DNA of 41,123 nt from Patescibacteria group bacterium. Lineage in GTDB: Bacteria > Patescibacteriota > Minisyncoccia > Phycocordibacterales > EsbW-18. The DNA is taken from contig JBBTUJ010000004.1 in the NCBI GenBank assembly GCA_038063815.1, positions 1 to 41,123 of the forward strand, given 5' to 3'. Positions 2,590-22,491 of the stretch are shown piece by piece (the first letter of the stretch is position 1; the number at the start of each line of letters is the position of its first letter). The notes under the pieces are model-generated. The model worked only from the letters and a program-made list of their open reading frames with translations. It was not told the origin of the DNA and ran no database searches. The position numbers were made by a program, and so were the translations under genes.

Positions 2590-3669
2590 CTATTCCGCCT
2601 TCAATTTTGCGCGAATCTCAGCGAGAAGTTTTTTCTTTACATCTTTATTCTCTCGCAGATAGGTTCGTGCCGCATCGTATCCGCGTCCGATTGTTTCACC
2701 CCCGTATTTGTATGATGCACCGCTTTTCTCCAGAAGTTCGTACTTTTCACCAAGCGCGAGCATTTCTCCTTCAAGTGAGATGCCTTCGTTGTATACCAAA
2801 TCGAATTCTGCTTGTTTGAATGGTGCCGCAACTTTGTTCTTCACAACTTTCACACGCACACGTCCTCCGACAACCTCTTCACCTTTTTTAATCTGTGCGA
2901 TGCGGCGTACATCGAGACGAACCGATGAATAGAATTTGAGAGCGTTTCCTCCCGGTGTCGTTTCAGGATTTCCGAACACAACACCAATTTTCATACGAAT
3001 CTGGTTGATAAAGATGACGATTGTCTTACTCTTCGCGACAATACCAGTCAATTTTCGAAGTGCCTGACTCATCAAACGTGCTTGTTTGCCCATGTGTTGC
3101 TGTCCCATCTCTCCCTCGATCTCATCTTTTGGAACAAGTGCCGCAACGGAGTCAATGACAACAACATCAATCTTGCCAGTACGCACCAAGGACTCAACGA
3201 TTTCAAGGGCCTGCTCTCCTGTGTCTGGCTGTGAAAGGAGAAGTTCCTCGATCTTCACACCAAGTTTTTTTGTGTATTCCGGATCCATCGCGTGCTCTGC
3301 GTCAACGAATGCGCAAATGCCGCCAGCTTTTTGTGCTTCGGCAACGACGTGGAGTGCGAGCGTTGTTTTTCCCGATGATTCAGGTCCGTAAATCTCGACA
3401 ACGCGTCCGCGGGGAAGTCCGCCGATGCCAAGCGCCGCATCCAAACCAAGAGATCCTGTTGAAACGGCTGCGATATCAACTCGCGGTCGATCACCAAGTT
3501 TCATAATCGAATCCTCGCCAAATTTTGTTTGAATTTGTCGGAGCGTCTCTTCGATGTTCGCCGCGGAGCGTCTGTTTTCCGGTTCTTCCTTGTCCGCTGG
3601 CTTTTTCGTCATCTTTTCTTCTGAAGGCGTTACCGGGGCGTCATTTTTTTGCTGTTTTTTGGGAGCCAT
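2590..3669 (-). CDS. recA: Recombinase A
   Basis: GPESSGKTT Walker [37 protein letters not shown]. Confidence 0.99.
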
Positions 3670-4395: not shown

Positions 4396-6621
4396 TCATA
4401 CTTCTTCCTCTGGTGGTCTAGCGGGAACTCCGTCGGGATGGGGGACAAGAACATCGCGTGGTTTTGATCCGTCAGCGGGTCCGATGATGCCGCGCTCTTC
4501 GAGAACATCCATCAAGCGTGCCGCACGTGAGTATCCGATGCGTAGTTTTCTCTGCAGATACGATGTTGACGCTTTTCCGGCGTGAACAACCGTCTCACGA
4601 GCTTCTTCAAACATCTCGTCATCAATCTCGTCTTCATCGTCTCCCCATGCGCTTCCGCCACTCCCACCCTTTGCCGCATCGAGGTCAATCGTCATCGAAA
4701 GATCCTCGTCATCGCTTTTGTGTTCACGCAAGAAATCAGTGACTTTTTTTACCTCGTCTTCCGAGATGTATGCTGATTGCAGACGTTTTGGTTTTCCCAT
4801 GTCGCCCGACATGAAGAGCATGTCACCTGCACCGAGAAGTTTTTCCGCACCCGATGCATCAAGAATGGTTCGTGAATCGATCTGGGAGGAGACCTGAAGC
4901 GCGACGCGTCCCGGGATGTTCGCCTTGATGAGTCCTGTGATGACGTTTACTGACGGGCGTTGTGTCGAGAGAATGAGGTGTATTCCGACAGCGCGGCTCA
5001 TCTGGGCCAAGCGCACGATCCCCGCTTCAAGTTCTCTCGGGTACATCGACATGATGTCCGCGAGCTCATCGATGACGAGGATGATGTACGGCATCGTCTC
5101 GGGCACATCTTCACCTTCTACAATGTCGCCACCTTTTGCTTTTTCGCGCGCAGGGCAGACAATCGTCGCGTGGTATGACGTAATGTCACGAACGCGTCTT
5201 TGTTCAAGGACGTTATACCTCCTCTCCATTTCAGATATCAACCACTTGAGCGCGAGTATCGCTTTCTTCGACTCTGTTATAACGGGTGTCAAAAGGTGCG
5301 GGATACCGTTGTAAAGCGTCAATTCAACTCGTTTTGGGTCAACGAGAACGAAGCGGAGCATCTCGGGGCTATTCCTGAAGAGAAGTGAGTTGATGAGCGC
5401 GTGGATGGTAACCGATTTTCCTGAGCCCGTCGCGCCGGCGATAAGGAGATGCGGCATCTTCACGAGGTTCGCAAAGAGAGGTTGCCCGTCAACGTCGCGT
5501 CCAAATGCAAGCGTTAGAGGATCGCGCGACTCCTGATATTCAGGGAACGAGAGAAGTGTTCCGAGACCCAATTTTGTTTTTGCAGAATTCGGCACCTCAA
5601 TCCCCACCAATGCTTTTCCCGGGATGGGAGCTTCGATGCGCACAGGGTGCGCGGCAAGCGCTAACTCGAGATTTCTCTGCAGTCCAAGAATTTTTGAGAT
5701 GCGAACACCCTCCGCCGGTTTCATCGCGTAGCGCGTGACCGAGGGACCAATCGCGATTTCATCCATCGCGACATCGATGCCGAAATTTTGGAGTGTTCGC
5801 TTGATGATGTTCGCATTCGCTTTGATGTCGCCAACGCCCGGTTTTCCGGAATCCTTCGCGAAAATCGAGAGGGGAGGTGGCGTGTACTCGCCGGTGTATG
5901 CGGCGAGAGAAAACCCCTCTTTCTTTTTCTTCCCGAACAGAGTTTCTTTTATTGTCGGTTCTTCAGATGTTTCTGTAACATTTTTTGCTACAGCACTTTG
6001 GGATACGGGTGCGGTCGCAGCGGGAAGTGCGTTGTCGATTCGCTCCTCCTCATCCTCCGTCAATTCTTTTGCGCCGACGTTTTTATCCTCGTTCTCAAGG
6101 CGTTCCCTACGCTTTTCTTGCCATGCGCGAAGTGTTGCCAAGGGATGCGTGTTGAAGAGTATCAAAAGAGAGATGCAGAAAACCGCGCCAAGAAGGACAC
6201 CTGCTCCGGGTGTGTCAAAGAGTCGCGCAAGCGGGTGCGCAATCCAACCCCCCAAAAGCCCTGCATGATTTGGTGCGAAGAGTTCGATAAGACCAAGACC
6301 TGTTGCACAGAAAAGAATTGACCCCAAGATATTCACAAGTGCCAGATTTGCTTTGACGGAATTCCAATAAGAGTACGCGAGAAGAATCATGAGTGTCGGC
6401 AGAAGGTAGTAGCCGACGCCAAGAAGTTTTCCAAGTATGTTGTACACGCGGCTTCCTACGATTCCGCCGTATCCATACGCAGCAAGAACGAAGAAAATAC
6501 CGATGACAAAAAAGACAACTGCTGAAATCGCGTACATTGTTTCTCGAGAAAGCCCAAACCGAGAAGAAGAAACATTTTTTTCATCATCACGATCTCTCGA
6601 TTTCTTTTTCTTTCGTTTCAT
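4396..6621 (-). CDS. ftsK: DNA translocase FtsK/SpoIIIE
   Basis: N-terminal TMs, PHLLIAGATGSGKS, IDELAD, STQRPSV, gamma domain STSYLQRKLRIGYSRAARLMD. Confidence 0.98.
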   Translation of the reverse strand: MKRKKKKSRDRDDEKNVSSSRFGLSRETMYAISAVVFFVIGIFFVLAAYGYGGIVGSRVYNILGKLLGVGYYLLPTLMILLAYSYWNSVKANLALVNILGSILFCATGLGLIELFAPNHAGLLGGWIAHPLARLFDTPGAGVLLGAVFCISLLILFNTHPLATLRAWQEKRRERLENEDKNVGAKELTEDEEERIDNALPAATAPVSQSAVAKNVTETSEEPTIKETLFGKKKKEGFSLAAYTGEYTPPPLSIFAKDSGKPGVGDIKANANIIKRTLQNFGIDVAMDEIAIGPSVTRYAMKPAEGVRISKILGLQRNLELALAAHPVRIEAPIPGKALVGIEVPNSAKTKLGLGTLLSFPEYQESRDPLTLAFGRDVDGQPLFANLVKMPHLLIAGATGSGKSVTIHALINSLLFRNSPEMLRFVLVDPKRVELTLYNGIPHLLTPVITESKKAILALKWLISEMERRYNVLEQRRVRDITSYHATIVCPAREKAKGGDIVEGEDVPETMPYIILVIDELADIMSMYPRELEAGIVRLAQMSRAVGIHLILSTQRPSVNVITGLIKANIPGRVALQVSSQIDSRTILDASGAEKLLGAGDMLFMSGDMGKPKRLQSAYISEDEVKKVTDFLREHKSDDEDLSMTIDLDAAKGGSGGSAWGDDEDEIDDEMFEEARETVVHAGKASTSYLQRKLRIGYSRAARLMDVLEERGIIGPADGSKPRDVLVPHPDGVPARPPEEEV

Positions 6622-6664
6622 GTGTTCATTTTATCACGAGAAGAGAGTTGCATCTCTCTCTACA

Positions 6665-6700
6665 GACATCCGATGTCCGATTTTTCGGACATCGGATGTC
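6665..6700. repeat. Nested palindrome (REP-like)
   Basis: GACATCCGATGTCCGA-TTTT-TCGGACATCGGATGTC; each arm is itself near-palindromic. Confidence 0.75.
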
Positions 6701-6836
6701 CTTTGGTGGGTTACAAAAAATGATTTGACAATGGCGCGCCTCTATTTTGTGCATCTCGATACGTTCTCTAACCCTTGTCTTTTAGATTTCGGAGGAGTAG
6801 TGTGTCTTTTATATTCATCACTCAAGGACAAGTGGT

Positions 6837-7613
6837 ATGTCCGATACAGAAAACAAAAAGACATCTCTCAAAGACACAGAAGGGGCCTCTCTCTCAGAAA
6901 TGCCCTCCACTTCTTATGACCTTGAGGAAGTATCTCAGAAGCTTGCAACTGCGCTCTATCTTGTGACCGGTCTTATGTCTGACGAAGAACCATTGAAATG
7001 GCATCTACGAAGGAAAGCAATCTCTCTCGTATCGGACACAGGAAGAGCGCTCCGTCTTTTCAAAATCGACAAAGAAGAAGATGTGCTCGCTTCACTTCAG
7101 ACATCATGTCGTGAGACGGTGTCCTTGATTAGGGTTTCAGCAATTTCAGGTATCGTTTCCACGATGAACGAAGAAATTATCGTGTTGCAAATGAACGCTT
7201 TCATGTCCGATATGAGAAGCATTCTTGAACGTGAGGATGGGAAGGGGGGGTTGATCAAAAAAATCCTTTCATACAAACGCCCGCTTCTGCTTGGGCGCCC
7301 AGAGAACAAGTACAATTTTTCTCAAGGACATTCTCAAGGACAGAGTTTTTCAAACCAAGCCGTTTTACCAAAGCAATCTGTCAAAAAAATAATCCTTCGG
7401 GTGCGACCTAACGGCAACGGTCTTGAAGGAAAGGCAAGAAAAGAAAAGATAACGGCTCTTGTCCGAGAGAAGGGGTCCGTTATGATAAAGGACATTGCGG
7501 GAGCAATACAGGATTGCAGTGAAAAAACGCTCCAGCGCGATCTTGGAGACCTCGTTCGTGAAGGTGTCCTTAAGCGAAAAGGAGAGCGCCGATGGACCGT
7601 CTATTTCGTGTAA
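6837..7613 (+). CDS. Putative DNA-binding protein: N-terminal helical bundle plus C-terminal DeoR-like winged helix
   Basis: C-terminus RKEKITALVREKGSVMIKDIA...SEKTLQRDLGDLVREGVLKRKG matches the DeoR-type wHTH pattern. Confidence 0.75.
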   Translation: MSDTENKKTSLKDTEGASLSEMPSTSYDLEEVSQKLATALYLVTGLMSDEEPLKWHLRRKAISLVSDTGRALRLFKIDKEEDVLASLQTSCRETVSLIRVSAISGIVSTMNEEIIVLQMNAFMSDMRSILEREDGKGGLIKKILSYKRPLLLGRPENKYNFSQGHSQGQSFSNQAVLPKQSVKKIILRVRPNGNGLEGKARKEKITALVREKGSVMIKDIAGAIQDCSEKTLQRDLGDLVREGVLKRKGERRWTVYFV

Positions 7614-7748
7614 TAAATCGCCTACCTGTTCGTCTTCATATATAGAGCAGAAAAGACGGTTATACGATTGTACGAAGGGCTTTCTCGTGCTATATTTTGA
7701 TATCCCAATGTAGGGGTATCACCCTCTCTTAAAAAGGGCTTGTAGTAT

Positions 7749-7757
7749 TTATCCACA
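7749..7757 (+). promoter_or_regulatory. Consensus DnaA box (single)
   Basis: TTATCCACA upstream of a TATAAT at ~7787. Confidence 0.4.
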
Positions 7758-8060
7758 AGCGATTTTGAGTGGAGTGGGCAGAGCACTATAATGATTTCGT
7801 GATGCAAGCGACGCATTTGGTATGCGTTCTTTGCAGGCGAATGATTGCAGTGCAAGAAACAGAGAAGCACATTGACAACTCCATACCCCGGTAGTGAAAT
7901 CCCGAACGCTTCCACGAAAGAGCGGCATTACTGTGTGTCAGTATTCGTATCTCGAAACTAGACGGTGATGAGGCGGACGAGAGATCGTTCGAAGCATTTC
8001 CGATTAGTGATTAATTTTATTAGTAGGGTTATTAGTAAATCAAAAATTTACAAACAGAAT

Positions 8061-11033: not shown

Positions 11034-12086
11034 ATGGAAACAAGCGTTGCAATCCTGATTGGGGCTCTCTTTGTCGGCGCATGCGTTTTTGCGGCTCTTT
11101 TTTTCACTCGCAAGGGGAAGAGGGGTGGTGGCGAGGAAGGCCTTTCGCTCGTGCTTCAGCAGATGAACGAGCACTTCCGGACGATGGGAGAGAGGATGGG
11201 AGAAACAACGAAGGTTGTCCACGAGTCCCTTGCAACACAATTCGGCCAGTCGCAAAAACTCATCCAGGAGGTCACGAAAGAATTGACCGAGGTCAAAGAG
11301 ACAGGGAAGCAGGTTGTCTCGTTTGCCGATCAACTCCAGAGTTTGCAGGACATACTCAAAAATCCAAAACAGCGCGGAGTTCTTGGCGAATACTATCTTG
11401 AAACGCTTTTGAAGAATGTTCTTCCGGATGGCAGTTACAAGATGCAGTATGCGTTTGCGGACGGAACGATCGTTGATGCCGCGGTGTTTGTAAAAGACAA
11501 GGTCATTCCCATTGACTCCAAATTTTCTCTTGAGAATTACAACCGCCTCGCCGAGGAGAAAAACGGACCAGAAAGAGATCGATTAGAGAAAGTTTTTGTT
11601 GCAGATCTCAAGAATCGCATCGTTGAGACATCAAAATATATTCTTCCCGCACAGGGAACAACCGATTTTGCGTTCATGTTCATTCCACACGAAGCCATCT
11701 ATTACGATCTTTTAGTGAACAAGATTGGTTTGGTTGGGGACGATACCGAGAGTTTGATCCAGCGGGCGGCGGGGAAGCACAAGGTTATCATTGTTTCCCC
11801 CACGTCGTTCCTTGCGTATCTCCAGACAGTCCTTCAGGGTTTGAAGGGTATGAAGATCGAAGAGCAGGCAAAAGACATCATCAAACGTGTCGGGGAGTTG
11901 GGGAAACACCTGAAAGGATACGAGGAGTATCACAAAAAATTGGGAAATGCGCTTGGTACAGCGATCAATCAATACAATTTTGCGGGGGATGAATTCAAGA
12001 AACTCGACAAAGATATCGTGCGCATCGCGGGCTCGTCACCGGGGCTCGAGACACTGACACTTGAGGTGCCCGCAAAGGGCGATTGA
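11034..12086 (+). CDS. rmuC: DNA recombination protein RmuC
   Basis: N-terminal TM, coiled coil, KQRGVLGE, IPIDSKF, TDFAFMFIP.E, IVSPTS. Confidence 0.93.
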   Translation: METSVAILIGALFVGACVFAALFFTRKGKRGGGEEGLSLVLQQMNEHFRTMGERMGETTKVVHESLATQFGQSQKLIQEVTKELTEVKETGKQVVSFADQLQSLQDILKNPKQRGVLGEYYLETLLKNVLPDGSYKMQYAFADGTIVDAAVFVKDKVIPIDSKFSLENYNRLAEEKNGPERDRLEKVFVADLKNRIVETSKYILPAQGTTDFAFMFIPHEAIYYDLLVNKIGLVGDDTESLIQRAAGKHKVIIVSPTSFLAYLQTVLQGLKGMKIEEQAKDIIKRVGELGKHLKGYEEYHKKLGNALGTAINQYNFAGDEFKKLDKDIVRIAGSSPGLETLTLEVPAKGD

Positions 12087-12160
12087 TTCACTTGTAGACG
12101 AATGTTACGCTACGCGTAGAAGTTCTCAGAACTCAAACTATCTCTCGCGAAGGGGAGGCC

Positions 12161-12598
12161 ATGACGAAAAAACCACTTGAGCAACAAGTGCTTCGAGTTT
12201 GTGCTCCGCGCGCGTGGCGCGAACAACTTGAGGCTCGCACGGTCCGTCATCGTCCCACCGGGCGGAGATTTCGTCTGTGTGTTGTTCCCTACGAGGAACT
12301 CACATGGCTTCGCCTGCGAAGGAGGGTGGCTGAGTACCGCTGCCATTTTTTTCTGAACAAGGGGTCGCGTACCACGCGTCTTTCGCGGGTGGAACTTGTG
12401 GTTCAGCCGCAGTTCGACCCCGTGGCGTGGCAGGTGCGTCTCGGTGGCACAAGTCACACTGAGGACCATTCTCTCGAGCTGTCCTCGGGGCACAACCCGT
12501 CTGTTGTACAGGTGACAAGTGGTATCGAGCGCCTCCTCGTTCTTCTCCCTGAGGAACGGCTCGAGCGATGGATCGCGAAGATGTGTCTCCGCGGTTGA
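12161..12598 (+). CDS. Hypothetical protein (orphan-like)
   Basis: TTGATT-17-TACGCT promoter (12083-12111) and GGGGAGG SD before the ATG; no recognisable motif. Confidence 0.5.
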   Translation: MTKKPLEQQVLRVCAPRAWREQLEARTVRHRPTGRRFRLCVVPYEELTWLRLRRRVAEYRCHFFLNKGSRTTRLSRVELVVQPQFDPVAWQVRLGGTSHTEDHSLELSSGHNPSVVQVTSGIERLLVLLPEERLERWIAKMCLRG

Positions 12599-12737
12599 CA
12601 CGAGCAACGTTCGTTGTTAGGGAGATTCCGGCGGCTGTTATCAGCCGCCGGTCGCTCGTATAACTAAAACAATAAAAGAAAGGAAAGTCTGGAGATTGAT
12701 ATATTGATTTTGGAGATGTATACTGTTGTTCTGACAG

Positions 12738-13012
12738 AGCGGGGTAGAGCAGTAGTAGCTCGTCAGGCTCAATTTTGGGCTCCTGTGAGAGCAATCTCAC
12801 ATGGATATCCTGTCAAATTCGGTGAAGTCCTCGATCAAAAAAGATCAAGATAATACCGAGCCAAGATCGCTCTGTGCGATAAGGTGTAGAGACTAGATGG
12901 CAGGCCTCTCCTCGAGAGGAAGGTATAGTCCAGACCACAAAACGAATGTGCAGTGAAAACTGTAGTGGTATGCATAACCTGAAGGTCGCAGGTGCAATTC
13001 CTGCCCCCGCAA
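12738..13012 (+). tRNA. tRNA-Met(CAT), initiator-like, split by intron (exons 12738-12769 and 12973-13012)
   Basis: Joined exons AGCGGGGTAGAGCAGTAGTAGCTCGTCAGGCT|CATAACCTGAAGGTCGCAGGTGCAATTCCTGCCCCCGCAA fold to a cloverleaf with an unpaired 1:72. Confidence 0.9.
12770..12972 (+). ncRNA. Group I self-splicing intron (203 nt, no ORF)
   Basis: Inserted after U33; ends in G; P1 with U.G wobble; core elements GTAGAGACTAGATGG and AAGGTATAGTCC (P7). Confidence 0.88.
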
Positions 13013-13017
13013 CAAGT

Positions 13018-13053
13018 AGAAAAAAGACGTGCCGTAAGGTGCGTCTTTTTTCT
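13018..13053 (+). terminator. Intrinsic terminator after tRNA
   Basis: AGAAAAAAGACGTGCC-GTAA-GGTGCGTCTTTTTTCT. Confidence 0.75.
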
Positions 13054-13137
13054 TGCTTTTGCGAGCGGGCAGGAATTGTAGGCCGGTTGTCCAACGCTCG
13101 TTGACAGCCCATATGTAACCTTCTATTATCGATTCAT

Positions 13138-13890
13138 ATGTCATACGTACTACTCATTTGCATCGCGCTGTTCCTTCTTTTAATCAGTATCAAGCAGATT
13201 AACCAATACCAACGTGGCTTGCGCTTCACTCTTGGCCGATTTACCGGGATTATGGAGCCCGGCTGGCGTCTCGTGATTCCTGTATTCCAGTCGCATCGCA
13301 AAGTGGATATGCGCGTGAAAGCAGTAGATGTACCGGACCAGAATGCTATTACGAAAGATAACGTATCAGTCGCGGTCAATGCGGTCATCTACTATAAGGT
13401 GTCTTCCGCCGAAAAGGCGATTCTCGAGGTCGAGGACTTCTTTTATGCGATTTCCCAGTACGCACAAACAACCATGCGTAACATCGTCGGAGAAGTGACG
13501 CTCGATGAGCTTTTGAGTGGGCGCGAGTCGATTGCAAACCGCATTAAGGAAATCGTTGATAAAGAAACCGATGCGTGGGGTTTGCAGGTCAACAATGTTG
13601 AGTTGAAGGACATCCGCTTACCAGAAGCTATGGAACGAACCATCGCAAAACAAGCCGAAGCGGAACGTGAAAAACGTGCCGTCATCATTACCTCTGAAGG
13701 AGAGCTGGCTGCCTCGGAGAATATCGCACGGGCCGCCGCAACACTGTCTGCCTCGGAGGGAGCGCTCCATTTGCGCACACTACAGTCCATTAACGATGTT
13801 TCCTCCGATGCTTCAAATACTATTATCTTTACGGTTCCACTTGAGATTTTAAAGGCGGTCACGGGATTTTCAAAAAAGAGCGGGCAATAA
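13138..13890 (+). CDS. SPFH/band 7 (slipin/stomatin-like) protein
   Basis: ITKDNVSVAVNAVIYY, AQTTMRNIVG, KQAEAEREKRA, LHLRTLQ. Confidence 0.93.
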   Translation: MSYVLLICIALFLLLISIKQINQYQRGLRFTLGRFTGIMEPGWRLVIPVFQSHRKVDMRVKAVDVPDQNAITKDNVSVAVNAVIYYKVSSAEKAILEVEDFFYAISQYAQTTMRNIVGEVTLDELLSGRESIANRIKEIVDKETDAWGLQVNNVELKDIRLPEAMERTIAKQAEAEREKRAVIITSEGELAASENIARAAATLSASEGALHLRTLQSINDVSSDASNTIIFTVPLEILKAVTGFSKKSGQ

Positions 13891-13998
13891 AAGTGATATC
13901 AAAAAGCCGGTCGTTTCAAGCGCCGCGCTTTTTGTGTGGCTCTATCTTGCTTTGCCCGCTACAAAATAATACTGGTCATACAATGTTATACTGACCGC

Positions 13999-14985
13999 AT
14001 GACGCAACTTTCTCTCCGACCACACCTTCTCCTTGTTTTTTTAGTGTTCGTAATAAGCATATTCATACCTCTCTCTGTCCATGCACAAAGCCGTTATGGG
14101 GGCTATTCAAGTTCGCTTCGTAATAAGATCAACGATCTCGATGATGACGCGGTTAAGAATCTCCCGGTACCCATCCTTTTTGGTGTAACGCTTCGAATGA
14201 TCACGCCGAATTTCGGTGACTCGCGCGGAGATGGAACACGAGAGCATGAAGGGCTCGACATCATGGCACCGAAGGGGGCACCTATCATCTCTCCAACTGA
14301 TGCCGTTGTGACGCGTACAGGCAGTGGCGCAAGTTCCGGCAAATATGTTTACACAGCGAACCCCGGGGGAGAGACCTTCATATACATGCACCTCGATGAG
14401 ATAGAGGTCAAGACGGGAGACGAACTTGACGAGGGGGATCTCATTGGTTTTGTCGGCAACACAGGAAATGCTTCGGGGGGCGCACACCACCTTCACCTTG
14501 AGATTCGTGACGGTCGACGTGCGACGGACCCACACCCGCGCATTTCTATCGAGCTTTCTCTCAAAGATAAAATAAAGTTTTTGAAAAATGTTATCCGAGA
14601 AGTAGATGATGAAGATGACTTCATTGAGTTCATCGTTGAAACATACTTGGGCGAATTGTGGCAGGCAAAAGCTGTGGGTATCGAACTCCCCAATGATGTC
14701 GAAGACGAGCTCGAAGACCTTCCCGTAATAACACCCGCAGGCGCTACGACGCCGGGCGACCTCACACTCGATTCGCAGGGTTCTGCGGTTGTAACATTGC
14801 AAGGATTTCTTATTGCAAAAGATACCGGCCCTGCCGCTCGTGCACTTTCTACTGCGGGGGCAACGGGCTACTTTGGTCCAATAACACAGCGCGCACTCAT
14901 CGAGTATCAACTTGCACACGGTATCTCGCCTGCAAGCGGTTACTTCGGCCCTCGAACACGCGCATACATACTGGCGAATGAGTAA
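13999..14985 (+). CDS. M23 family peptidase with C-terminal peptidoglycan-binding domain
   Basis: HEGLD, YMHL, HLHLEI motifs; C-terminal GYFGPITQRALIEYQ...GYFGPRTR; N-terminal signal/TM. Confidence 0.9.
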   Translation: MTQLSLRPHLLLVFLVFVISIFIPLSVHAQSRYGGYSSSLRNKINDLDDDAVKNLPVPILFGVTLRMITPNFGDSRGDGTREHEGLDIMAPKGAPIISPTDAVVTRTGSGASSGKYVYTANPGGETFIYMHLDEIEVKTGDELDEGDLIGFVGNTGNASGGAHHLHLEIRDGRRATDPHPRISIELSLKDKIKFLKNVIREVDDEDDFIEFIVETYLGELWQAKAVGIELPNDVEDELEDLPVITPAGATTPGDLTLDSQGSAVVTLQGFLIAKDTGPAARALSTAGATGYFGPITQRALIEYQLAHGISPASGYFGPRTRAYILANE

Positions 14986-15008
14986 AACCTTTTTCTACAA
15001 CAAGGGCA

Positions 15009-15815
15009 TCACCGCATTCTTTGTTTTTTAAAGTGTTTCAAGAATGCGACGATGACGAAGCTGATTATGACCATAAGGAACCACGAAGTGACTTTTTGAG
15101 TTGATACTACCCTCCACACATGAACCTGATCCGGATACTGCCATGCGCCGAGATAGGTTGATATATTTTCTGCGATCCAGATAAAAAAAGCGATACAGAG
15201 AAACGATACCGTTAATGACATGCGACGAACCGCGCGGGTGATTGTAAAGGATATTTTTGTTTTCCAAAATAGGACGAATACGAGAAATATAAGGAACCAG
15301 CGAATATCGTACAAAAAGTGATTTGTAAAAAAGTTGCCATAGATAGCTATACACAAGAGAACGCTCCAAAAGTACCGAGGAGGGTTGATTAGTTCAAGTT
15401 TTAGTATTTTCCATGCTTGGCTGATGTAACTTCCTATCGCGGCGTACATAAAACCGCTATATAAAGGCACCGTCAGGATCTTAAAGAATGCATCCTCGGG
15501 GTAACTCCACGAACCAATCGCGGGGTTGGTCTTATACAGCTCAAGTACAAGGCCGATGATATGGAACAAGAATATGACCTTTACCTCGTCTTTTGTTTCA
15601 AAGCCGGAGAAATAGAGAACGCATTGGATTGCGACCGCTGCCATAAAAAGAAAGTCATATCGTGCAAGACCAAAGAGAGGGATGTGATTTGACAGGAAGA
15701 GAACAAGAAAAAAAGAGCCGGCGAATATAGCAGCTCGCGCTTCTTTGATGGCAAAAACAACGCATTTGTGCAAAAGATTCTGGAAGACGTTTTTGAATCG
15801 AGAATACATGTTCAT
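15009..15815 (-). CDS. DUF817-family membrane protein
   Basis: RYDFLF, GSWSYPE, VPLYSGFMYAAIGSY, FFIWIAENI; start uncertain (15809-15848). Confidence 0.8.
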   Translation of the reverse strand: MNMYSRFKNVFQNLLHKCVVFAIKEARAAIFAGSFFLVLFLSNHIPLFGLARYDFLFMAAVAIQCVLYFSGFETKDEVKVIFLFHIIGLVLELYKTNPAIGSWSYPEDAFFKILTVPLYSGFMYAAIGSYISQAWKILKLELINPPRYFWSVLLCIAIYGNFFTNHFLYDIRWFLIFLVFVLFWKTKISFTITRAVRRMSLTVSFLCIAFFIWIAENISTYLGAWQYPDQVHVWRVVSTQKVTSWFLMVIISFVIVAFLKHFKKQRMR

Positions 15816-15896
15816 TCTTGCTGTGGCCACCAAAATTATAACACCCATGCCTGAGCGCGGGTGTTATGGAAGGTCTATGAAATTCTGCCCCCCCTG

Positions 15897-16658
15897 TTAC
15901 TTCGTCGAGTAGTTGAGGTTCACTTCGATGATGACTTCTGATGTCCCTGTGGGGACTGATGGAGCAATGCTGTCGCCCATATCGCCACCGTAACCATAAC
16001 TATCGTAATAAGGGATTGGTTGACCGGGAACAGAGATCGGATTTTCCCACCAACCAATCACTCGCTTGAGACGCACTCCAGCCGCGTCAGCAATCGCTTG
16101 CGCACGTCCTTTTGCTTCACCAATCGCCTCGATCAAAGCCTCTTGTTTCAAATCATCAATATTCGAAGGTTCAAATGTAACGCCGAGGATCTGGTTCGCG
16201 CCGTTTTTGCTTGCGGCTTCGATTACGCTCTGAACCATCGTCTTTGATTCTGCGATTGATACTTCAACGGTAATCTGCTCGTCTGCTGTGTATCCGCTCA
16301 CTTGGCTCGGGCTCCCTTCGGGATAGTAATATTGCGGATACAAACTCAAACTGTGTGTCGAGACATTTTCTTGAGGTACACCGAGCGCAAGAAGCGCGGC
16401 GAGTATCGCGTCAATCTTTGTGTTTAAGGGTAAAAGGGCTGCTTGTGCCGTAGAACCTTCCGAGTGAACACCAAGGATTATTTTCGCGATGTCGGGAGTG
16501 TACGAAACTTCCCCGCGTCCTGTTACAGAGATCTCACGGTACGGTTGGTTAACGATGCGATCGCGCAAGATAGCAACAGTGATAATACCCGCAAGGAGAA
16601 GCATGCCGAGGATCATGACGCCATTCGTCACACCGCGGGTATAAAGGGGCTGATTCAT
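15897..16658 (-). CDS. SIMPL (DUF541) domain protein
   Basis: ISVTGRGEVSYTPD, LSLYPQY, GANQILGVTF, EAKGRAQAIADAAGVRL. Confidence 0.9.
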   Translation of the reverse strand: MNQPLYTRGVTNGVMILGMLLLAGIITVAILRDRIVNQPYREISVTGRGEVSYTPDIAKIILGVHSEGSTAQAALLPLNTKIDAILAALLALGVPQENVSTHSLSLYPQYYYPEGSPSQVSGYTADEQITVEVSIAESKTMVQSVIEAASKNGANQILGVTFEPSNIDDLKQEALIEAIGEAKGRAQAIADAAGVRLKRVIGWWENPISVPGQPIPYYDSYGYGGDMGDSIAPSVPTGTSEVIIEVNLNYSTK

Positions 16659-16805
16659 GTGTATACGGAGAAAGTGTCTAATAATTAATTTCTTGGCGGT
16701 GTACTCGGGTTAAGTACCCACGACTCGAGGCTGTGTAAGCGTATTCTAGCACCTTTGGCTCAAGCAAATTGAGGGTACTCGGGTCACTCCGATACTAAAT
16801 TGTCT

Positions 16806-16882
16806 TGGCGGAGTCGACGGGACTCGAACCCGCAACCTCTCCCGTGACAGGGGAGTGCTCTAACCAGTTGAGCTACGACTCC
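16806..16882 (-). tRNA. tRNA-Asp(GTC)
   Basis: GGAGTCGTAGCTCAACTGGTTAGAGCACTCCCCTGTCACGGGAGAGGTTGCGGGTTCGAGTCCCGTCGACTCCGCCA. Confidence 0.96.
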
Positions 16883-16932
16883 AGAACGAAATCGATTATA
16901 GCAAAAAACGTTCCGAAATCAATCTCTTTTAG

Positions 16933-17006
16933 TGCCGGGGGAGGGACTCGAACCCTCGACCTTCTCTTTATGAGTGAGATGCTCTAACCACCTGAGCTAC
17001 CCCGGC
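16933..17006 (-). tRNA. tRNA with CAT anticodon (elongator Met or Ile2)
   Basis: GCCGGGGTAGCTCAGGTGGTTAGAGCATCTCACTCATAAAGAGAAGGTCGAGGGTTCGAGTCCCTCCCCCGGCA; paired 1:72; A-A mismatch in the anticodon stem. Confidence 0.9.
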
Positions 17007-17057
17007 ATCAGGTATCCGTAGGATACAAAAAAGGAAGGTATCTGACAACCAAGAGTG

Positions 17058-17507
17058 TTACGCGAAGCGTGCGGTACGGGCACGGTGCGATTCGTGAAGA
17101 AGAACGACAAGTCCAGCTATCGCGAGTGTCATATTTTTTATGACGAATTCTCCGGCAAGCGAAAGGATGGGAAAGTGTGGCTGGAAGACGATTTCTGTCC
17201 CCATTATGAATGAAAGGAATGTACCGGCGAGATGTAGAAGAAGAAGGACGTGCACGATGGGGCGTGCCTTGTTTACCAGAAGCCCGATACCAATCGCTGT
17301 TTCAAAAACACCGAGGAATATGAGACCGGGCGGCACTGCGAGTGTTGGCATGACCGCATTGATGAGATCAAAGACGGGGTTAAATCCAAATATCTTGAGA
17401 AGCCCAAACCAGACAAAAATAATGGCCAAACTGTAGCGAAGGATTACAACAATTTTGTCCTCGTAGGCGCGTTTCAGATGGGGAAGAGTGTTATTTGTCA
17501 ATTTCAT
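17058..17507 (-). CDS. DoxX/DUF417-like membrane protein
   Basis: LRYSLAIIFVWFGLLK...GEFVIKN; TATAAT 7 nt before ATG 17507. Confidence 0.8.
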   Translation of the reverse strand: MKLTNNTLPHLKRAYEDKIVVILRYSLAIIFVWFGLLKIFGFNPVFDLINAVMPTLAVPPGLIFLGVFETAIGIGLLVNKARPIVHVLLLLHLAGTFLSFIMGTEIVFQPHFPILSLAGEFVIKNMTLAIAGLVVLLHESHRARTARFA

Positions 17508-17564
17508 ACTGTGCATTATACTTTACAGCATATATCAGATTTGTATTAGCCCATGTAGTTACTT

Positions 17565-18224
17565 ATGACAACTTTTTCAAAGAAAGAAGCGCTTACATTT
17601 GGATGGAATACGTTTAAGAAAAATCCATGGATTTTTGTAGGCATTGCAGCATTTCTTGCGATTGTCTCCCTTCTCTTCCAGCAGGTAATGCCCAAGGAAC
17701 ACTCTTTCGTGGAATTAGTGCTTGGAATTGTTACGACAGTAATACAGTGGTGGTTGTATCTCGGTCTTACACGAATCACTCTTGCTGCGTACGCTGGGTC
17801 CCCGATTTCATTTAAAATGCTTTTTGGTGAATCGTGGAATATGCTCTGGCACTACATCGTTGCGATGGTCGTGACCATCGTCCTTGTCTGTATCGGTCTC
17901 GTGCTCCTTGTCGTGCCTGGTATTATCGTGCAGATCATGCTCTCCCTTTCCGTCTTCTTGATCGTGGAGAAGAACATGAAGCCGATCGAAGCACTCAAAG
18001 AAAGCCGTCGGTTAACGAAAGGACACCGGTGGAATATGTTTCTCCTCTTCCTCCTCTTGGCGCTCGTGAATGGTGTTGGACTTCTTCTTGTCGGTGTCGG
18101 GCTTCTTGTGACGATTCCCGTGACGTTTCTTGCGCTGACGTGGATGTATAAGGAAATCGAGAAGGGTGTACAACTTGAACCAGTTTCGAACACACCTCTC
18201 ATTACACCTACACCAAAACTCTAG
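17565..18224 (+). CDS. Integral membrane protein
   Basis: GLVLLVVPGII, EALKESRRLTKG, GVGLLVTIP; about 5 TM segments. Confidence 0.8.
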   Translation: MTTFSKKEALTFGWNTFKKNPWIFVGIAAFLAIVSLLFQQVMPKEHSFVELVLGIVTTVIQWWLYLGLTRITLAAYAGSPISFKMLFGESWNMLWHYIVAMVVTIVLVCIGLVLLVVPGIIVQIMLSLSVFLIVEKNMKPIEALKESRRLTKGHRWNMFLLFLLLALVNGVGLLLVGVGLLVTIPVTFLALTWMYKEIEKGVQLEPVSNTPLITPTPKL

Positions 18225-18288
18225 GGTTTTGCACTGAAACTTTCTCTGACGTATAGTAAACAACGCGCTTCAAGGCGCGCTGTTTACT

Positions 18289-18361
18289 GCCCGGGTAGCT
18301 CAGTTGGTAGAGCGCGTCCATGGTAAGGACGAGGTCGCCGGTTCAATCCCGGCCCCGGGCT
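18289..18361 (+). tRNA. tRNA-Thr(GGT)
   Basis: Cloverleaf; anticodon arm CGTCC-ATGGTAA-GGACG; TTGCAC-17-TATAGT upstream. Confidence 0.95.
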
Positions 18362-18376
18362 CCGAATTTTGGTTGT

Positions 18377-18500
18377 GGCCGGGATTGAACGCGAAAGGGG
18401 TCGGGGAAACTGTAGTTTCCCCGTGTCGGAGAGCAGCGAAGCGCTGAGCACCGAGGGTGCTCAGAGAACGTCAGTGAGTGAAATGCCCGGCCCCGGGCTC
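18377..18500. repeat. tRNA-linked structured element with inverted and direct copies of the tRNA 3' end
   Basis: 18377-18390 is the reverse complement of 18341-18354; 18486-18500 equals 18348-18362; two internal hairpins. Confidence 0.75.
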
Positions 18501-18707
18501 AGAGTCATAGGACTTGGAAGTTAGAAGTGGGCAGTTAGTAATGAGAATGTGATGTGGTTGCCGTATAGTTGTTTTTGTCTCCTGCTTTTTATTTCTGTAA
18601 GTAAAAACGTGTTCGTTCGTTATACTATACATGACGCTTATTGCAGTACTAAGCGCCGAGTTGTATTACTAGACGATTATTAAGTAATAACCTACTTTAT
18701 ATTATTT

Positions 18708-19553
18708 ATGAAAGAAAAATTTCTCAAAGCATTAGCGGCCGCTGTTGTTGCCGTTGTGGTTATTGTCGGAGCATTCGCTCTTACAAGCACAAACCGTGTC
18801 TATGCGGCAACAAACTCGAATTCTTCTGCTGAACAAACGCTCGAAAGCATTCTCATGAAAATCATCGAGCTCTTGAAAGAGCAGATTGCTCTTTTGAAGG
18901 GTGACTCAAGTAACGATGACAATAGTGATGACGATTCTTCATCGAATGGTCAAAAAGAAAGCGCGGCATCACACATTCAAAATGCCGAGAAGGAGATTGA
19001 AAAAGCACAGAGTGACTTTGATGATGCAGAGGACGATGGCGACGATGTTGGAGATGCTGAAGACCTTATTGATGATGCGGAAACAAAGCTCGCTGAAGCC
19101 AATGACGCCTATGACGATGGTGAATATGGTGAGGCAAAAGACCTTGCTGATGACGCAAAGGAACTCGCAAAGGATGCGCGAGATGAGGTAGATGGTGATA
19201 GTGACGGAGATGACGACGATGACGATGATGACGACGATGACGACGACGATGACGACGATGATGATGACGATGATGACGATGATGACGATGATGACGATGA
19301 TAATGACGATGAAAACGATGCGCAGGATGCGCTCGATGACGCCGAGGACACGATCAATGATGCCCAGGATGCCTTTAACGAAGCAGAGGACAATGACGAA
19401 GACACTGGCGATGCAGAGGGTCTCATTGACGAGGCAAACGATCTTCTCGATGACGCGCAGGACGCGTTTGATGATGAAGATTGGGATGGGGCAGAAGATC
19501 TTGCCAATGACGCTGAAGACAAGGCGGACGAGGCAATGGACGAACTCGACTAA
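18708..19553 (+). CDS. Secreted extremely acidic protein with two helical repeats and a poly-Asp linker
   Basis: Signal peptide; 31 consecutive GAT/GAC codons (19209-19301); terminator follows. Confidence 0.8.
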   Translation: MKEKFLKALAAAVVAVVVIVGAFALTSTNRVYAATNSNSSAEQTLESILMKIIELLKEQIALLKGDSSNDDNSDDDSSSNGQKESAASHIQNAEKEIEKAQSDFDDAEDDGDDVGDAEDLIDDAETKLAEANDAYDDGEYGEAKDLADDAKELAKDARDEVDGDSDGDDDDDDDDDDDDDDDDDDDDDDDDDDDDDDDNDDENDAQDALDDAEDTINDAQDAFNEAEDNDEDTGDAEGLIDEANDLLDDAQDAFDDEDWDGAEDLANDAEDKADEAMDELD

Positions 19554-19570
19554 AGATTCTTATTTCGAGG

Positions 19571-19598
19571 CAAAAACCCGCCATATGGCGGGTTTTTG
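19571..19598 (+). terminator. Intrinsic terminator
   Basis: CAAAAACCCGCC-ATAT-GGCGGGTTTTTG. Confidence 0.85.
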
Positions 19599-19622
19599 TG
19601 TTATAATCCGCCGGTATTAAAG

Positions 19623-19695
19623 GCCACCTTAGCTCAGTTGGTAGAGCACTACTTTCGTAAAGTAGGGGTCCCCAGTTCGATCCTGGGAGGTGGCT
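19623..19695 (+). tRNA. tRNA-Thr(CGT)
   Basis: Cloverleaf; anticodon arm CTACT-TTCGTAA-AGTAG. Confidence 0.95.
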
Positions 19696-19734
19696 CAAAA
19701 ACTGTACGGAGAATGTTTTGTTATACTGATACTC

Positions 19735-20616
19735 GTGAACGAGACGATGCAAGAGCGCATACGAGAACTCGAAGCGGCCATGGGTGCCGCCGATTTTTGG
19801 TCGAATAAGGACTCTGCTCAAAAGATAGTCAGGGAATACCAAGATCTCAAAGAGCGAGCAGAGGGGCACGGCTCTCATGACGCTGGAAATGCGATTATGA
19901 CGATTTTTGCGGGTGCGGGAGGTCTCGACGCAGAGGACTTCGCTCACATGCTGGTCGGCATGTACACGGCATACGCGAAGGGCAAGGCCTGGCCTATAAC
20001 ACTTCTTCACAAGAATGAGAATGATCACGGCGGGGTCAGGAATATCACATTTGAGATAGACGGCAAAAATGCATACGGAACACTTAAGAATGAGTCAGGC
20101 GTGCACCGACTGGTCCGTATCTCGCCTTTCAATGCAAAACAACAACGGCACACTTCATTTGTAATGGTTGAAGTGTTGCCAAAATTCGAAGACACGAAGG
20201 AGGACGATATCCCGGTGGCGGAAATCGAGTTTCAATTCGCGCGTTCGGGTGGTCCCGGAGGACAAAATGTTAACAAACGAGAAACAGCGGTGCGTGTTGT
20301 CCATATTCCGACAGGGCTCACGGCTCATGTTGACACAGAACGAAGTCAAGCACAGAATCGCGCGGTGGCACTTTCAATTTTGCGCGCAAAACTGTATCAT
20401 AAAGAGGAAGAGGATCAGAAAAAGATTGCACGCGGGCTCACCATTTCGAGTACAACAGATGCGGAATGGGGAAATCAGATACGCTCATACGTCCTCCATC
20501 CGTATAAATTGGTAAAAGATCATCGCACGAATGTTGAAGTCCGTGATACGGAGAAAGTGCTCATGGACGGAGCTATTGACGAGTTCATTGAGGCGGAACG
20601 GCTTCTCCAAACATAA
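19735..20616 (+). CDS. prfB: Peptide chain release factor 2, N-terminally shortened
   Basis: ESGVHRLVRISPF (SPF), GPGGQNVN, WGNQIRSYVLHPY; start GTG 19735 or ATG 19747. Confidence 0.93.
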   Translation: MNETMQERIRELEAAMGAADFWSNKDSAQKIVREYQDLKERAEGHGSHDAGNAIMTIFAGAGGLDAEDFAHMLVGMYTAYAKGKAWPITLLHKNENDHGGVRNITFEIDGKNAYGTLKNESGVHRLVRISPFNAKQQRHTSFVMVEVLPKFEDTKEDDIPVAEIEFQFARSGGPGGQNVNKRETAVRVVHIPTGLTAHVDTERSQAQNRAVALSILRAKLYHKEEEDQKKIARGLTISSTTDAEWGNQIRSYVLHPYKLVKDHRTNVEVRDTEKVLMDGAIDEFIEAERLLQT

Positions 20617-20621
20617 CCACT

Positions 20622-21326
20622 ATGGATCAAGAAGAAACACAACACATGATTTTATTTGACGACGTATCGAAGACATACGCCGACACATCGGTGGCGCTTT
20701 ATAACGTCTCTTTTTCAGTTGCGTCGGGAGAATTTGTTTCGATTGTAGGCCACTCGGGAGCGGGCAAGACGACTCTTTTGAAACTCCTTCTTGCCGAGGA
20801 ACATCCAACAGAAGGAAAAGTATTCTTAGGAGCACAGAATGTTCACGAGCTCTCACGTAAAGAAGTGAGCGCGCTTCGCCGCCGAATCGGAATGATTTTC
20901 CAGGATTTTCGATTACTCCCACAAAAGACAGCATTCGAAAACATTGCATTTGCAATGGAGGCGGCGGGGCGAACAGATGACGAGATCGAAAGTGACGTTC
21001 CGTATGCACTTGAGCTTGTAGGGCTTGCAGGAAAGGCGTGGAAATTTCCCCAGCAGATGTCGGGGGGTGAGAAACAGCGTCTTGCGATAGCGCGTGCAAT
21101 CGTGAACCAGCCAGATGTTCTCGTTGCGGACGAACCCACAGGAAATCTTGACCCTTTGAATACGTATGAAGTTGTGCAAATCTTGAAGAAGATTAATGAT
21201 CTTGGAACGACGGTTGTCCTTACAACGCACAATAAGGGGGTGATTGATTCACTTGAGAAGCGGGTCATCACACTTGAAAACGGACGTGTCGTCAGAGACA
21301 ATAAAGAAGGACGGTACGCAATATAA
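20622..21326 (+). CDS. ftsE: Cell division ATP-binding protein FtsE
   Basis: GHSGAGKTT, IGMIFQDFRLL, SGGEKQR, DEPTGNLDP; prfB-ftsE-ftsX order; alternative start 20646. Confidence 0.93.
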   Translation: MDQEETQHMILFDDVSKTYADTSVALYNVSFSVASGEFVSIVGHSGAGKTTLLKLLLAEEHPTEGKVFLGAQNVHELSRKEVSALRRRIGMIFQDFRLLPQKTAFENIAFAMEAAGRTDDEIESDVPYALELVGLAGKAWKFPQQMSGGEKQRLAIARAIVNQPDVLVADEPTGNLDPLNTYEVVQILKKINDLGTTVVLTTHNKGVIDSLEKRVITLENGRVVRDNKEGRYAI

Positions 21327-21438
21327 AAACCAACAACCAACAACCTACGACCAACGACCAACAACCTACGACCAACAACCGACGACGAAACCAAACTAAA
21401 ACCAATCACTAACTGCTCACTCCCAATCTCCAACTCCT
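21327..21438 (+). repeat. Heptamer tandem repeat (CC[A/T]AC[A/G]A) plus conserved C/A-rich tail
   Basis: About eight CCAACAA/CCTACGA/CCAACGA units, then a tail shared with 1177-1230. Confidence 0.8.
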
Positions 21439-22365
21439 ATGTTATGGACAAACACCAAAAGAATACTTGAAGCAGGATTCGTGAATTTTTGGCGAAACGG
21501 GTTCGTGTCGCTCGCATCCGTTCTCATCATGGTCGTGACCCTTTTTACCCTAGGTGCGATGCTTTTTTCGAGCGCTGTTCTCAACAGTTCTCTCGTACAA
21601 CTTCGTGAAAAAGTGGATGTGAACGTCTATTTCATGACGGATGCGTCCGAAGAAGATATTTTGGTATTGAAAGAAGAACTCGAAACTCTACCGGAGGTTG
21701 CACTCGTCGAATATGTATCGCGCGAACAAGCACTCTTGAACTTCAGGGAACGTCACCAAGACGATCAGACGATACAAAATGCTCTTGCGGAACTCGAAGA
21801 TAACCCTCTGGGCGCATTCTTCAACGTGAAAGCGCGCGAGACATCACAGTATGAATCAATCGCGACATTCCTTGAGAGCGAGGCGGCACTTGGAGCGGGG
21901 GATCGTGTCATCGTCCAGAATATTAACTACTTTGATAACAAACCGGTCATCGAGAAGCTCGCGGAAATTATTGATTCCGCAGAACGGCTCGGATTCGTGC
22001 TTTCCATCGTCCTTATTCTTCTCTCGCTTATCATTACGTTTAACACAATCCGACTTGCGATCTACACGGCGCGCGAAGAGATCTCGGTCATGCGACTTGT
22101 GGGAGCGAACAACAGCTATGTTCGTGGACCGTTTGTGGTTGAGGGGGTTATGTACGGCGTTTCAGCGGCGATTATTGTTCTTGCTCTCTTTTACCCTCTG
22201 ACACTTTGGATCGGACCATTTACAGAGCGATTCTTCGGCTCAATGAATCTCTTCTCGTACTATCTTGGTAATTTTGGACAGATCTTTCTCATCATCCTCG
22301 GTGCGGGAATTGTCCTCGGTGCTCTCTCGAGTTATCTTGCGGTGCGGAGATATCTTAGGGTTTAG
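21439..22365 (+). CDS. ftsX: Cell division permease FtsX
   Basis: NTIRLAIYTAREEISVMRLVGA...RGPFVVEG; 4 TM segments. Confidence 0.93.
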   Translation: MLWTNTKRILEAGFVNFWRNGFVSLASVLIMVVTLFTLGAMLFSSAVLNSSLVQLREKVDVNVYFMTDASEEDILVLKEELETLPEVALVEYVSREQALLNFRERHQDDQTIQNALAELEDNPLGAFFNVKARETSQYESIATFLESEAALGAGDRVIVQNINYFDNKPVIEKLAEIIDSAERLGFVLSIVLILLSLIITFNTIRLAIYTAREEISVMRLVGANNSYVRGPFVVEGVMYGVSAAIIVLALFYPLTLWIGPFTERFFGSMNLFSYYLGNFGQIFLIILGAGIVLGALSSYLAVRRYLRV

Positions 22366-22379
22366 ACCCCACTCTTCTA

Positions 22380-22406: not shown

Positions 22407-22491
22407 CGACATTGGGTGCGGTGTTGTGTATGGGGTTGATAAAAATCTGTCCAACGAGGATACTACTGGTAGACGAAGAAAGGAGAGCGCG

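Follow-up and report, generated by a model that had tools for sequence, protein, structure and literature searches.

We describe a gene of a Patescibacteria group bacterium whose own DNA carries an array of one short sequence motif, denser than any other array of that motif in the genome, and we consider what the encoded protein is likely to do with that array. The gene lies at 6837..7613 (+) of the window, a stretch of 41,123 bp that constitutes contig JBBTUJ010000004.1 of assembly GCA_038063815.1; the assembly, called G000 below, comprises 19 contigs and 631,992 bp, and the window is its contig C4. The product is a protein of 258 amino acids with a C-terminal winged helix. The array recurs over orthologous genes of the same order, is maintained by selection on the DNA itself, and is helically phased. 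We propose that the product is a multivalent, self-targeting autoregulator with a small regulon and with TAAARGACA as its recognition site, a reading to which we assign a probability of roughly 0.6.

The motif array and its conservation

The array was first noticed in a sequence-only reading of the window, which listed 19 starts of a degenerate 7-bp motif, TGTC[CT](TT|GA) or its reverse complement. A regular-expression search returns exactly these 19 starts in 6665-7613, of 44 in the window as a whole, and the MSD, KD and QG words that the sites were said to leave in the protein are present. Across G000 the pattern occurs 477 times in 631,992 bp (0.75 per kb, or ~0.7 expected per 949 bp). The best 949-bp window of the 632-kb genome is 6665-7613 itself, with 19 sites against 5 for the runner-up; in density, the array is unique in its genome. 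As a post hoc control, every 950-bp window of the genome was scored for its most over-represented strand-collapsed k-mer. In the array window the scan finds GGACA/TGTCC 13 times (1.65 expected), AAGGACA 7 times (0.18 expected), and TCGGACA 6 times (0.13 expected). The array is outscored by 56 of 6468 windows at k=5 (14 loci) and by 41 of 6468 at k=7 (10 loci); the top-ranked windows are D-rich or poly-A tracts, CG- or AT-rich runs, or the AT-rich contig C19. The enrichment is therefore real but less extreme than the 19 against about 0.5 that was first estimated.

Comparison across species sharpens the motif. Derived from 303 instances at 19 loci, it reads T-A-A-A-R-G-A-C-A as a consensus, with TCRGACA as a minor variant; the enriched word first reported is genuine, and its degenerate 7-bp form was imprecise. 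Of 41 relatives sampled from the order, 39 encode an orthologue of the 258-aa protein, full-length matches being 26-40% identical to it, and species genomes hold at least 569 relatives of the winged-helix protein. All 20 loci that were fetched carry the motif array over the orthologous gene: aligned on the stop codon, motif density is 0.8-3 per 100 bp between -900 and -100, compared with ~0.05-0.1 in the flanks, and it peaks twice, first around the promoter and start codon and again in the region ahead of the winged helix. In 80 further species loci, AAARGACA reaches 5.58 per kb over the gene region versus 0.127 per kb outside it, and each of the 80 carries at least one copy. The same array thus lies over the gene in relatives, so that this check, which the sequence-only reading had called for, favours a real feature, as do the density in the genome and the synonymous-site constraint described below.

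The own gene also stands out in site searches. With a position weight matrix (PWM) built without the window's locus, 10 of the 117 G000 sites scoring at least 12 fall within this 1 kb; in G013, a relative with a complete genome of 811,376 bp, 9 of 36 PWM sites scoring at least 14 lie in the orthologous locus. When the matrix leaves out each genome's own locus, this gene is the top cluster in both.

The array follows a particular protein family. In a phylum sample of 301 genomes (300 drawn genomes plus G000), the full-length family is confined to the order plus a few members in the class; beyond these, matches cover the winged helix alone and the proteins are otherwise built differently. The recognition helix (C/V)(S/G)EKT(I/L)QR(E/D)L is shared by six further orthologues, which have 14-21 RGACA cores and 4-9 strict sites, compared with 0-7 cores and 0-1 strict sites at 23 more distant winged-helix relatives whose helices differ (SEDTILRDL and STRTLRRDM, for example). 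Judged from these sequences, a motif that tracks the recognition helix is the pattern expected if the product reads the motif, which falls short of proof. The tandem pattern AAARGACA-N3-5-AAARGACA has 19 matches in the 301 genomes versus 16 for a reversed-pattern control, in a search that was too strict and in a sample with only ~7 genomes that hold the full-length family; it is present in three of the seven family genomes, in two of these at the gene locus. This phylum-wide result weakly supports the link between array and family.

Selection on the array acts at the DNA level. In the linker-coding region, ATAAARGACAT is read as KGH, KDI, KRT, KKT or KGQ, differing even within one gene, and sense copies start in frames 0, 1 and 2 in 87, 88 and 148 cases, respectively. 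Synonymous codons were permuted within each of 93 non-redundant genes in 100 shuffles: the real genes hold 553 PWM sites and the shuffles 162.8, a 3.4-fold excess that amounts to constraint at synonymous positions, which the sequence-only reading had suggested looking for. The real count exceeds the shuffle mean by more than 2 standard deviations in 84 of the 93 genes and exceeds all 100 shuffles in 61; the window's own gene has 9 PWM sites versus 2.2 +/- 1.3.

The sites are unevenly distributed over the gene and regularly spaced. Region densities and spacings come from 63 of 99 loci, the other 36 having been set aside as duplicates, as too short, or as lacking the EPLKW landmark by which domains were placed for the density counts. 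Per kb, there are 8.8 sites upstream (100-400 nt before the bundle-coding part, that is, the promoter and 5' end), 17.5 in the 5' tail-coding part, 4.2 in the part coding for the four-helix bundle, 12.4 in the linker-coding part, 6.2 in the winged-helix-coding part, and 0.19 in the 1 kb downstream of the gene. Within the coding sequence, the segments for the disordered tail and linker are therefore the most densely occupied. Distances between neighbouring same-strand sites in these loci peak at 11, 20 and 31 bp; therefore, the spacing is helically phased. Promoter-proximal copies in orthologous loci are often inverted, and perfect palindromes of the motif word occur in intergenic DNA elsewhere in the genomes. 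That these inverted and palindromic copies lie in untranscribed or intergenic DNA points to an element of DNA and not of RNA. Intragenic copies are ~70% sense (116 versus 49), and an Rfam scan of 6600-7964 found no RNA family.

The protein and its predicted assembly

The protein consists of four parts, delimited by AlphaFold2 on a 46-sequence alignment: a disordered tail (residues 1-24; predicted local distance difference test, pLDDT, below 50), a four-helix bundle (residues 25-134, nt 6909-7238; pLDDT above 90), a disordered linker (residues 136-192, nt 7242-7412; below 50), and a winged helix (residues 195-257, nt 7419-7607; above 90). The winged helix had been described as a DeoR-like winged helix-turn-helix (wHTH). 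That description suits the small helix-turn-helix (HTH) itself, which just passes the Pfam model HTH_DeoR (PF08220) at residues 201-247 (22 bits against a cut-off of 21, E 1.4e-4), at the C-terminus and not the N-terminus. It does not extend to the rest of a DeoR protein: no Pfam hit to the DeoRC sugar-phosphate sensor/oligomerisation domain appears at E up to 1, and NCBIfam DeoR/GlpR models match the HTH alone, far below their cut-offs. In structure comparison, the winged helix resembles small wHTH domains of the Z-alpha, MecI/BlaI and ArsR types.

The ~110-residue bundle is predicted to have the topology of the Avd/S23-IVP proteins. Its top seven structure matches all belong to that group (2rld, 8ub8, 8ub7, 2gsc, 4dwl, 8ube and 8ubb), with Z of 13.3-14.4 and a root-mean-square deviation of 1.6-2.2 over 104-109 residues; the next match has a Z of 11.9. 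Among these seven, 8ub8, 8ub7, 8ube and 8ubb are entries for complexes of diversity-generating retroelements, and 4dwl is Avd. A Foldseek comparison of the bundle with 2gsc gives E 6.6e-4 and a template-modelling score (target) of 0.83. Avd is described as a pentameric barrel (10.1101/344556). The bundle is likewise predicted to self-associate: a four-copy complex prediction for residues 25-136 scores 0.66, compared with 0.01 for the best control, with at least 87% contact agreement between runs and a partner pLDDT of at least 81. Among the calibration cases, 20 of 30 solved pairs pass the threshold, as does 1 of 23 single chains; these counts hold only roughly here because the calibration used two copies and its own alignments. 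In the four-copy model, the interface runs head to tail through the invariant residues E51, P52, R58 and Y41.

Annotation adds little to these predictions. Homologues are named "hypothetical" in their sources and once "DeoR family transcriptional regulator", and the Atlas protein clusters of the family all come from Minisyncoccota. The combination of an Avd-like hub with a winged helix is neither described nor named among the homologue names, cluster names and papers that were searched, and the searches for papers on Patescibacteria/Parcubacteria regulators, supplementary files aside, brought up no description of the family. Searches of Pfam and NCBIfam at E up to 1 found no Rep-type, DnaD-like or AAA+ domain in the protein, Pfam found no ParB_N domain in it, and no reverse transcriptase was seen in the 1.5-kb flanks of the gene.

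The locus, its chromosomal setting and further motif clusters

The gene sits in a conserved neighbourhood: ftsK (divergent), the gene, a long intergenic region, and a PG_binding_1 surface protein gene. It is chromosomal, single copy, and syntenic across an order, with ftsK next to it in 18 of 19 loci that have upstream flank and the PG_binding_1 gene in 18 of 20 that have downstream flank. In the window, ftsK occupies 4396..6621 on the minus strand (Pfam FtsK_SpoIIIE, FtsK_gamma, FtsK_alpha, FtsK_4TM), followed in the same group by a small open reading frame (ORF) and by recA (2590-3669, minus strand), so the divergence from ftsK-orf-recA noted earlier is correct. The two divergent genes share a 215-bp intergenic region that contains the first of two site clusters.

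Cluster A (6673..6877) has 8 sites with PWM scores of at least 10, from a matrix built without the locus. It reaches from the ftsK/wHTH intergenic region across the promoter and start codon to codon 14, and this hot spot recurs in orthologues. At its ftsK end is a perfect inverted repeat, GACATCCGATGTCCGA / TCGGACATCGGATGTC (6665..6700; 16-nt arms, 4-nt spacer, 100% complementary), 44 bp upstream of the ftsK start. The repeat bears the sites at 6674, 6685 and 6697, which have PWM scores of only 10.2-11.2, and was not seen in the upstream regions of 19 relatives. A putative promoter for the winged-helix gene itself, read from the sequence, consists of TTGTCT (-35-like), 17 nt, and TAGTGT (-10-like) at 6775..6803 (+); the site at 6776 overlaps the -35 element and that at 6803 the -10/start region. 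A repeat search (family D4) places ATGTCCGAT at 6837 and 7203, with a third copy at 6673 that has one mismatch.

Within the coding sequence, regular-expression sites at 6976, 7032, 7097, 7120 and 7204 (6976..7210) fall in the part encoding the four-helix bundle. Cluster B (7319..7342, +; repeat search D1) is a tandem of two copies of TTCTCAAGGACA at 12-bp spacing, translated as SQGHSQGQ in the linker, with PWM scores of 14.9 and 13.0; at this position, orthologues bear 3-6 ATAAARGACAT repeats, in all three reading frames. The PWM scan finds three sites in the winged-helix coding part (7459..7575), and one of them, GATAAAGGACAT, encodes the nearly invariant IKDI.

Beyond the stop codon, the DnaA-box sequence TTATCCACA followed by a TTGAGT-16-TATAAT promoter of the PG_binding_1 gene (7749..7792, +) is a conserved neighbour of the module, outside the array. 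TTATCCACA stands just upstream of the -35 of this strong promoter; across loci, a DnaA-box sequence is conserved ~25-290 bp past the gene stop. In the plus orientation and at most 450 bp after the stop, it is found in 19 of 20 loci (window included) and in 67 of 77 further loci; the whole genome has only 9 perfect boxes. A boxA-like CTTTGACAA leader follows the PG_binding_1 promoter. The arrangement suggests that DnaA, or another reader of the TTATCCACA word, controls the surface protein. We considered the DnaA boxes as part of a replication origin and rejected this, as TTATCCACA stands just upstream of the -35 of the next gene's promoter.

The position on the chromosome can be read from G013, where cumulative GC skew is lowest at 547 kb, beside dnaA (544.6 kb), and highest near ~130-210 kb. 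Both dnaA and the skew minimum are ~195 kb away from the orthologous locus (350 kb), which occupies a steadily falling slope with no inflection. Because it sits mid-replichore on this slope, the locus is neither origin nor terminus. The window itself has a shallow skew minimum near 4.9 kb, but contigs C1 and C3 behave alike and dnaA is on C3; an origin or terminus location was rejected on the strength of G013.

Motif clusters also occur elsewhere, above all beside parS. With up to 2 mismatches allowed, all 5 parS-like sites of G000 lie at C5:96,975-97,236 and not on C4, and 4 of 5 in G013 lie at 590,372-590,736. Every one of the 8 parS loci examined has PWM sites scoring at least 12 on the flanks of its parS cluster; the loci come from 7 genomes, two of them of other families, these being the 7 of 41 with a perfect parS 16-mer. 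These flanks hold 37 sites in 22.2 kb, ~10-fold over the genome background of 0.16-0.18 per kb, and in G000 the motif cluster starts 26 bp after the last parS-like site. The small orthologous cluster of G000 and G013 at this place is in or beside a UPF0102 gene. As a separate observation, the parS-like sites themselves (5 in G000, 4 in G013) cluster inside or just upstream of this UPF0102 (YraN-like) nuclease-fold gene; since they lie within it, this centromere is embedded in coding sequence.

Other small orthologous clusters lie in a ~670-bp non-coding region between the 3' ends of the CCA-adding enzyme and Exo_endo_phos genes, and upstream of a gene for a class I tRNA synthetase. Across this upstream region, a GEVED/SpaA surface-protein gene diverges from the synthetase gene in G013; in G000, the cluster lies so near the contig end that the neighbour on that side is not visible. 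A further cluster occupies the divergent promoter region of an MscS-like gene. Strong sites outside the own locus are 26% and 25% intergenic in the two genomes, versus a 12% intergenic share of the genome as estimated from crude gene calls.

Several observations stand apart from these results. The ~670-bp region between convergent genes (G000 C5 ~99,843-100,511; 4 motif sites, no Rfam hit) is unusually long given the compactness of the genome, and an unrecognised RNA might lie within it. DnaA-box or near-box words (TGTGGATAA, TGTGGACAA, TTATCCCCA) stand directly beside TAAARGACA sites at several other clusters: G013 39,210 and 611,101, and G000 C1 ~66,010, C5 ~97,300 and ~100,490. ORFs with a ParB_N domain occur in G000 at C2:25418, C3:93031 and C1:58346 (388, 487 and 433 aa, respectively); the two longer proteins may be non-canonical ParB-like proteins. 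In the window, a GATGA/GACGA/ATGACG-rich stretch at ~18,400-19,400 dominates the genome k-mer over-representation scan, with tRNA-Thr genes around it at 18289 and 19623. Finally, Rfam matches a group I intron at 12760-12954 (+) with 52.9 bits against a gathering score of 50; ARAGORN, run on 12000-25000, finds no tRNA at the match.

Proposed mechanism, alternatives and significance

We propose that the product is a sequence-specific DNA-binding protein with the 9-bp TAAARGACA as its recognition site. Its Avd-like bundles would join head to tail and close into a ring, probably of five subunits like that of Avd, in which each subunit bears one small winged helix on a ~55-residue disordered linker: a hub with tethered heads. 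Such a multivalent particle would bind arrays of sites far better than single sites, and would tolerate irregular spacing and both orientations. Because the largest array of the genome covers this very gene, from the promoter through the start codon into the coding sequence, the protein would, as its level rises, coat its own gene and shut it down. Shutdown could combine promoter occlusion with roadblocks or with looping from the 5' cluster to the linker cluster, resulting in tight negative autoregulation; the divergent ftsK promoter would probably be affected too, because the intergenic region is shared. The smaller clusters at the parS flanks, the tRNA synthetase/surface-protein region and the convergent non-coding region may form a small regulon or serve as anchoring points. 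The disordered tail and linker would offer coding space where sites cost the protein little. Among the mechanisms that the sequence-only reading had listed, strong autoregulation by self-binding fits best.

Several points weigh against this proposal. The loci compared are kin, and counts across them overstate independence; two relatives (L015 and L019) lack the linker cluster. The Avd likeness is one of fold: Pfam has no four-helix-bundle family for the bundle at E up to 1, the family profile matches 2gsc in the PDB at a marginal E of 0.36, and a Z of ~13 for helical bundles can reflect a common arrangement. The predicted self-association may likewise reflect the model's memory of solved Avd rings. 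At the promoter, a consensus scan did not call the putative elements, which are weak by consensus. Of 93 non-redundant loci, only 10 show the layout TTGTCYTT-N13-17-TAnnnT, and in these the sites stand at constant positions (0, +35, ~+52, +72 and +87); because the layout is confined to these 10, repression by -35 occlusion is not general for the family. Another protein could read the motif, and the genome encodes three ParB_N-domain proteins.

The main alternative, which is not exclusive of the autoregulator, is that the array serves mainly as an architectural or segregation platform: a nucleoprotein body at the own gene and the parS flanks, with autoregulation as a by-product. The role of such a body might be to delimit or arrange the ParB partition complex, or to serve as a landmark on the chromosome. 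The sites around all sampled parS clusters, the 26-bp distance in G000 and the conserved ftsK neighbour point this way; moreover, the array exceeds the needs of promoter control, with 4-6 sites per kb even in the domain-coding parts, and a multivalent hub is compatible with such a role. However, the own locus holds no special position on the replichore, other clusters lie in ordinary divergent promoter regions (tRNA synthetase/surface protein, MscS-like gene), the UPF0102 gene in or beside parS may simply have a regulated promoter, and no motor gene is adjacent. On balance, we consider the platform unlikely; its fullest form, in which a ring-shaped Avd-like hub forms a nucleoprotein body on its own gene by ftsK and at the parS flanks and bounds or organises the ParB complex, seems slightly more doubtful still. 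If true, it would be a previously unknown chromosome-organisation system of the Candidate Phyla Radiation (CPR), with the gene itself as main loading platform. The tie to segregation first suggested for this locus gains unexpected support, if indirect, from the parS flanks and the ftsK neighbour; the locus itself is not origin, terminus or parS. In G000, parS is on another contig, and the neighbours of the loci include no partition NTPase gene (ParM, ParA or TubZ).

It is improbable that the motif is read by another DNA-binding protein, or by an RNA-binding factor on the mRNA, with the wHTH gene as target and not source. The connection between product and motif is itself inferred, ~70% of the intragenic copies are in sense orientation, and candidate readers exist (the three ParB_N proteins, HU and, in G013, a TrmB-like protein). 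Yet the cluster tracks the family and its invariant recognition helix and is missing at distant winged-helix relatives, the strict tandem pattern is at background in the phylum, and the copies that are palindromic or antisense, in promoters and between genes, speak against an RNA element. That the strongest motif cluster falls on a regulator gene is, furthermore, a classic signature of autoregulation. Far less credible is an origin whose iterons are the internal direct repeats of the initiator's own gene, the iteron-like reading of the earlier note. The phased direct repeats in the variable, disordered-linker-coding middle of the gene, the inverted copies at the promoter and the conserved DnaA-box sequence past the stop recall such origins, but skew in G013 shows no inflection at the locus and reaches its minimum by dnaA, the gene is a single-copy, syntenic chromosomal one without a Rep, DnaD-like or AAA+ domain, and the DnaA box belongs to the next gene's promoter. 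Least tenable, and already refuted, is an enrichment due to chance, composition, or a by-product of protein repeats or codon bias. The motif was defined after being seen, 2 of the 19 sites stem from one 12-bp tandem duplication, and one encodes the conserved IKDI; against this stand the uniqueness in the genome, the excess over synonymous shuffles, and the fact that each of 100 orthologous loci carries the array, in every frame and at positions that are not homologous.

The proposed autoregulator resembles several known systems in part. Auxiliary operators in transcribed DNA are familiar from LacI (O2 in lacZ), GalR (OI in galE), and E. coli DeoR with its three separated operators. Common to these and the present case would be several separated operators, some intragenic, bound cooperatively by an oligomeric repressor, and the HTH here is of DeoR type. 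In contrast, each gene here has 10-20 sites and not 2-3; they fall within the coding sequence of the regulator itself, and selection has preserved them throughout an order-level radiation. Unlike DeoR, the protein has no DeoRC sensor domain, and its oligomerising part would be the Avd-like bundle. Centromere-binding autoregulators of plasmids (ParR/parC, TubR/tubC) share short repeats ~11-12 bp apart at their own promoter, which a small protein would coat to autoregulate; here no ParM, ParA or TubZ gene adjoins, the sites run through the coding sequence, and a ParB is encoded by the genome itself, whose parS cluster is at another place. The lambda origin lies inside gene O, and that of RepA_N plasmids is in the middle of rep. 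Binding of RepA_N proteins to iterons at the origin is documented (PMC7145576). The likeness to lambda O and RepA_N is in phased direct repeats of the presumed site of the product within a poorly conserved, linker-coding middle; the differences are the lack of an origin signature and of Rep homology, the chromosomal, syntenic setting, and sites of 9 bp instead of 17-22 bp. With the Avd/S23-IVP proteins, the protein shares the fold of residues 25-134 and the predicted head-to-tail self-association. Avd is a separate polypeptide that works together with a reverse transcriptase and RNA (10.1101/344556), whereas here the bundle is fused to a winged helix. New in this analysis are the Avd-like hub with its predicted self-association, the mid-replichore position, the negative control in distant relatives, and the bracketing of parS.

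Patescibacteria, the ultra-small bacteria of the CPR, are uncultured and have very few regulators, and their regulation and chromosome biology are almost unknown. Our analysis yields a protein family present in 39 of 41 sampled genomes of an order, a precise predicted site, and a small predicted target set, and recombinant protein alone would suffice to test all of these. The factor is tied to chromosome segregation by its conserved sites around parS, in a manner that can be tested in vitro with ParB. More broadly, the gene is a clear example from nature of how a second code, at the level of DNA, can shape a coding sequence; the disordered segments of the protein appear to exist partly to house binding sites.

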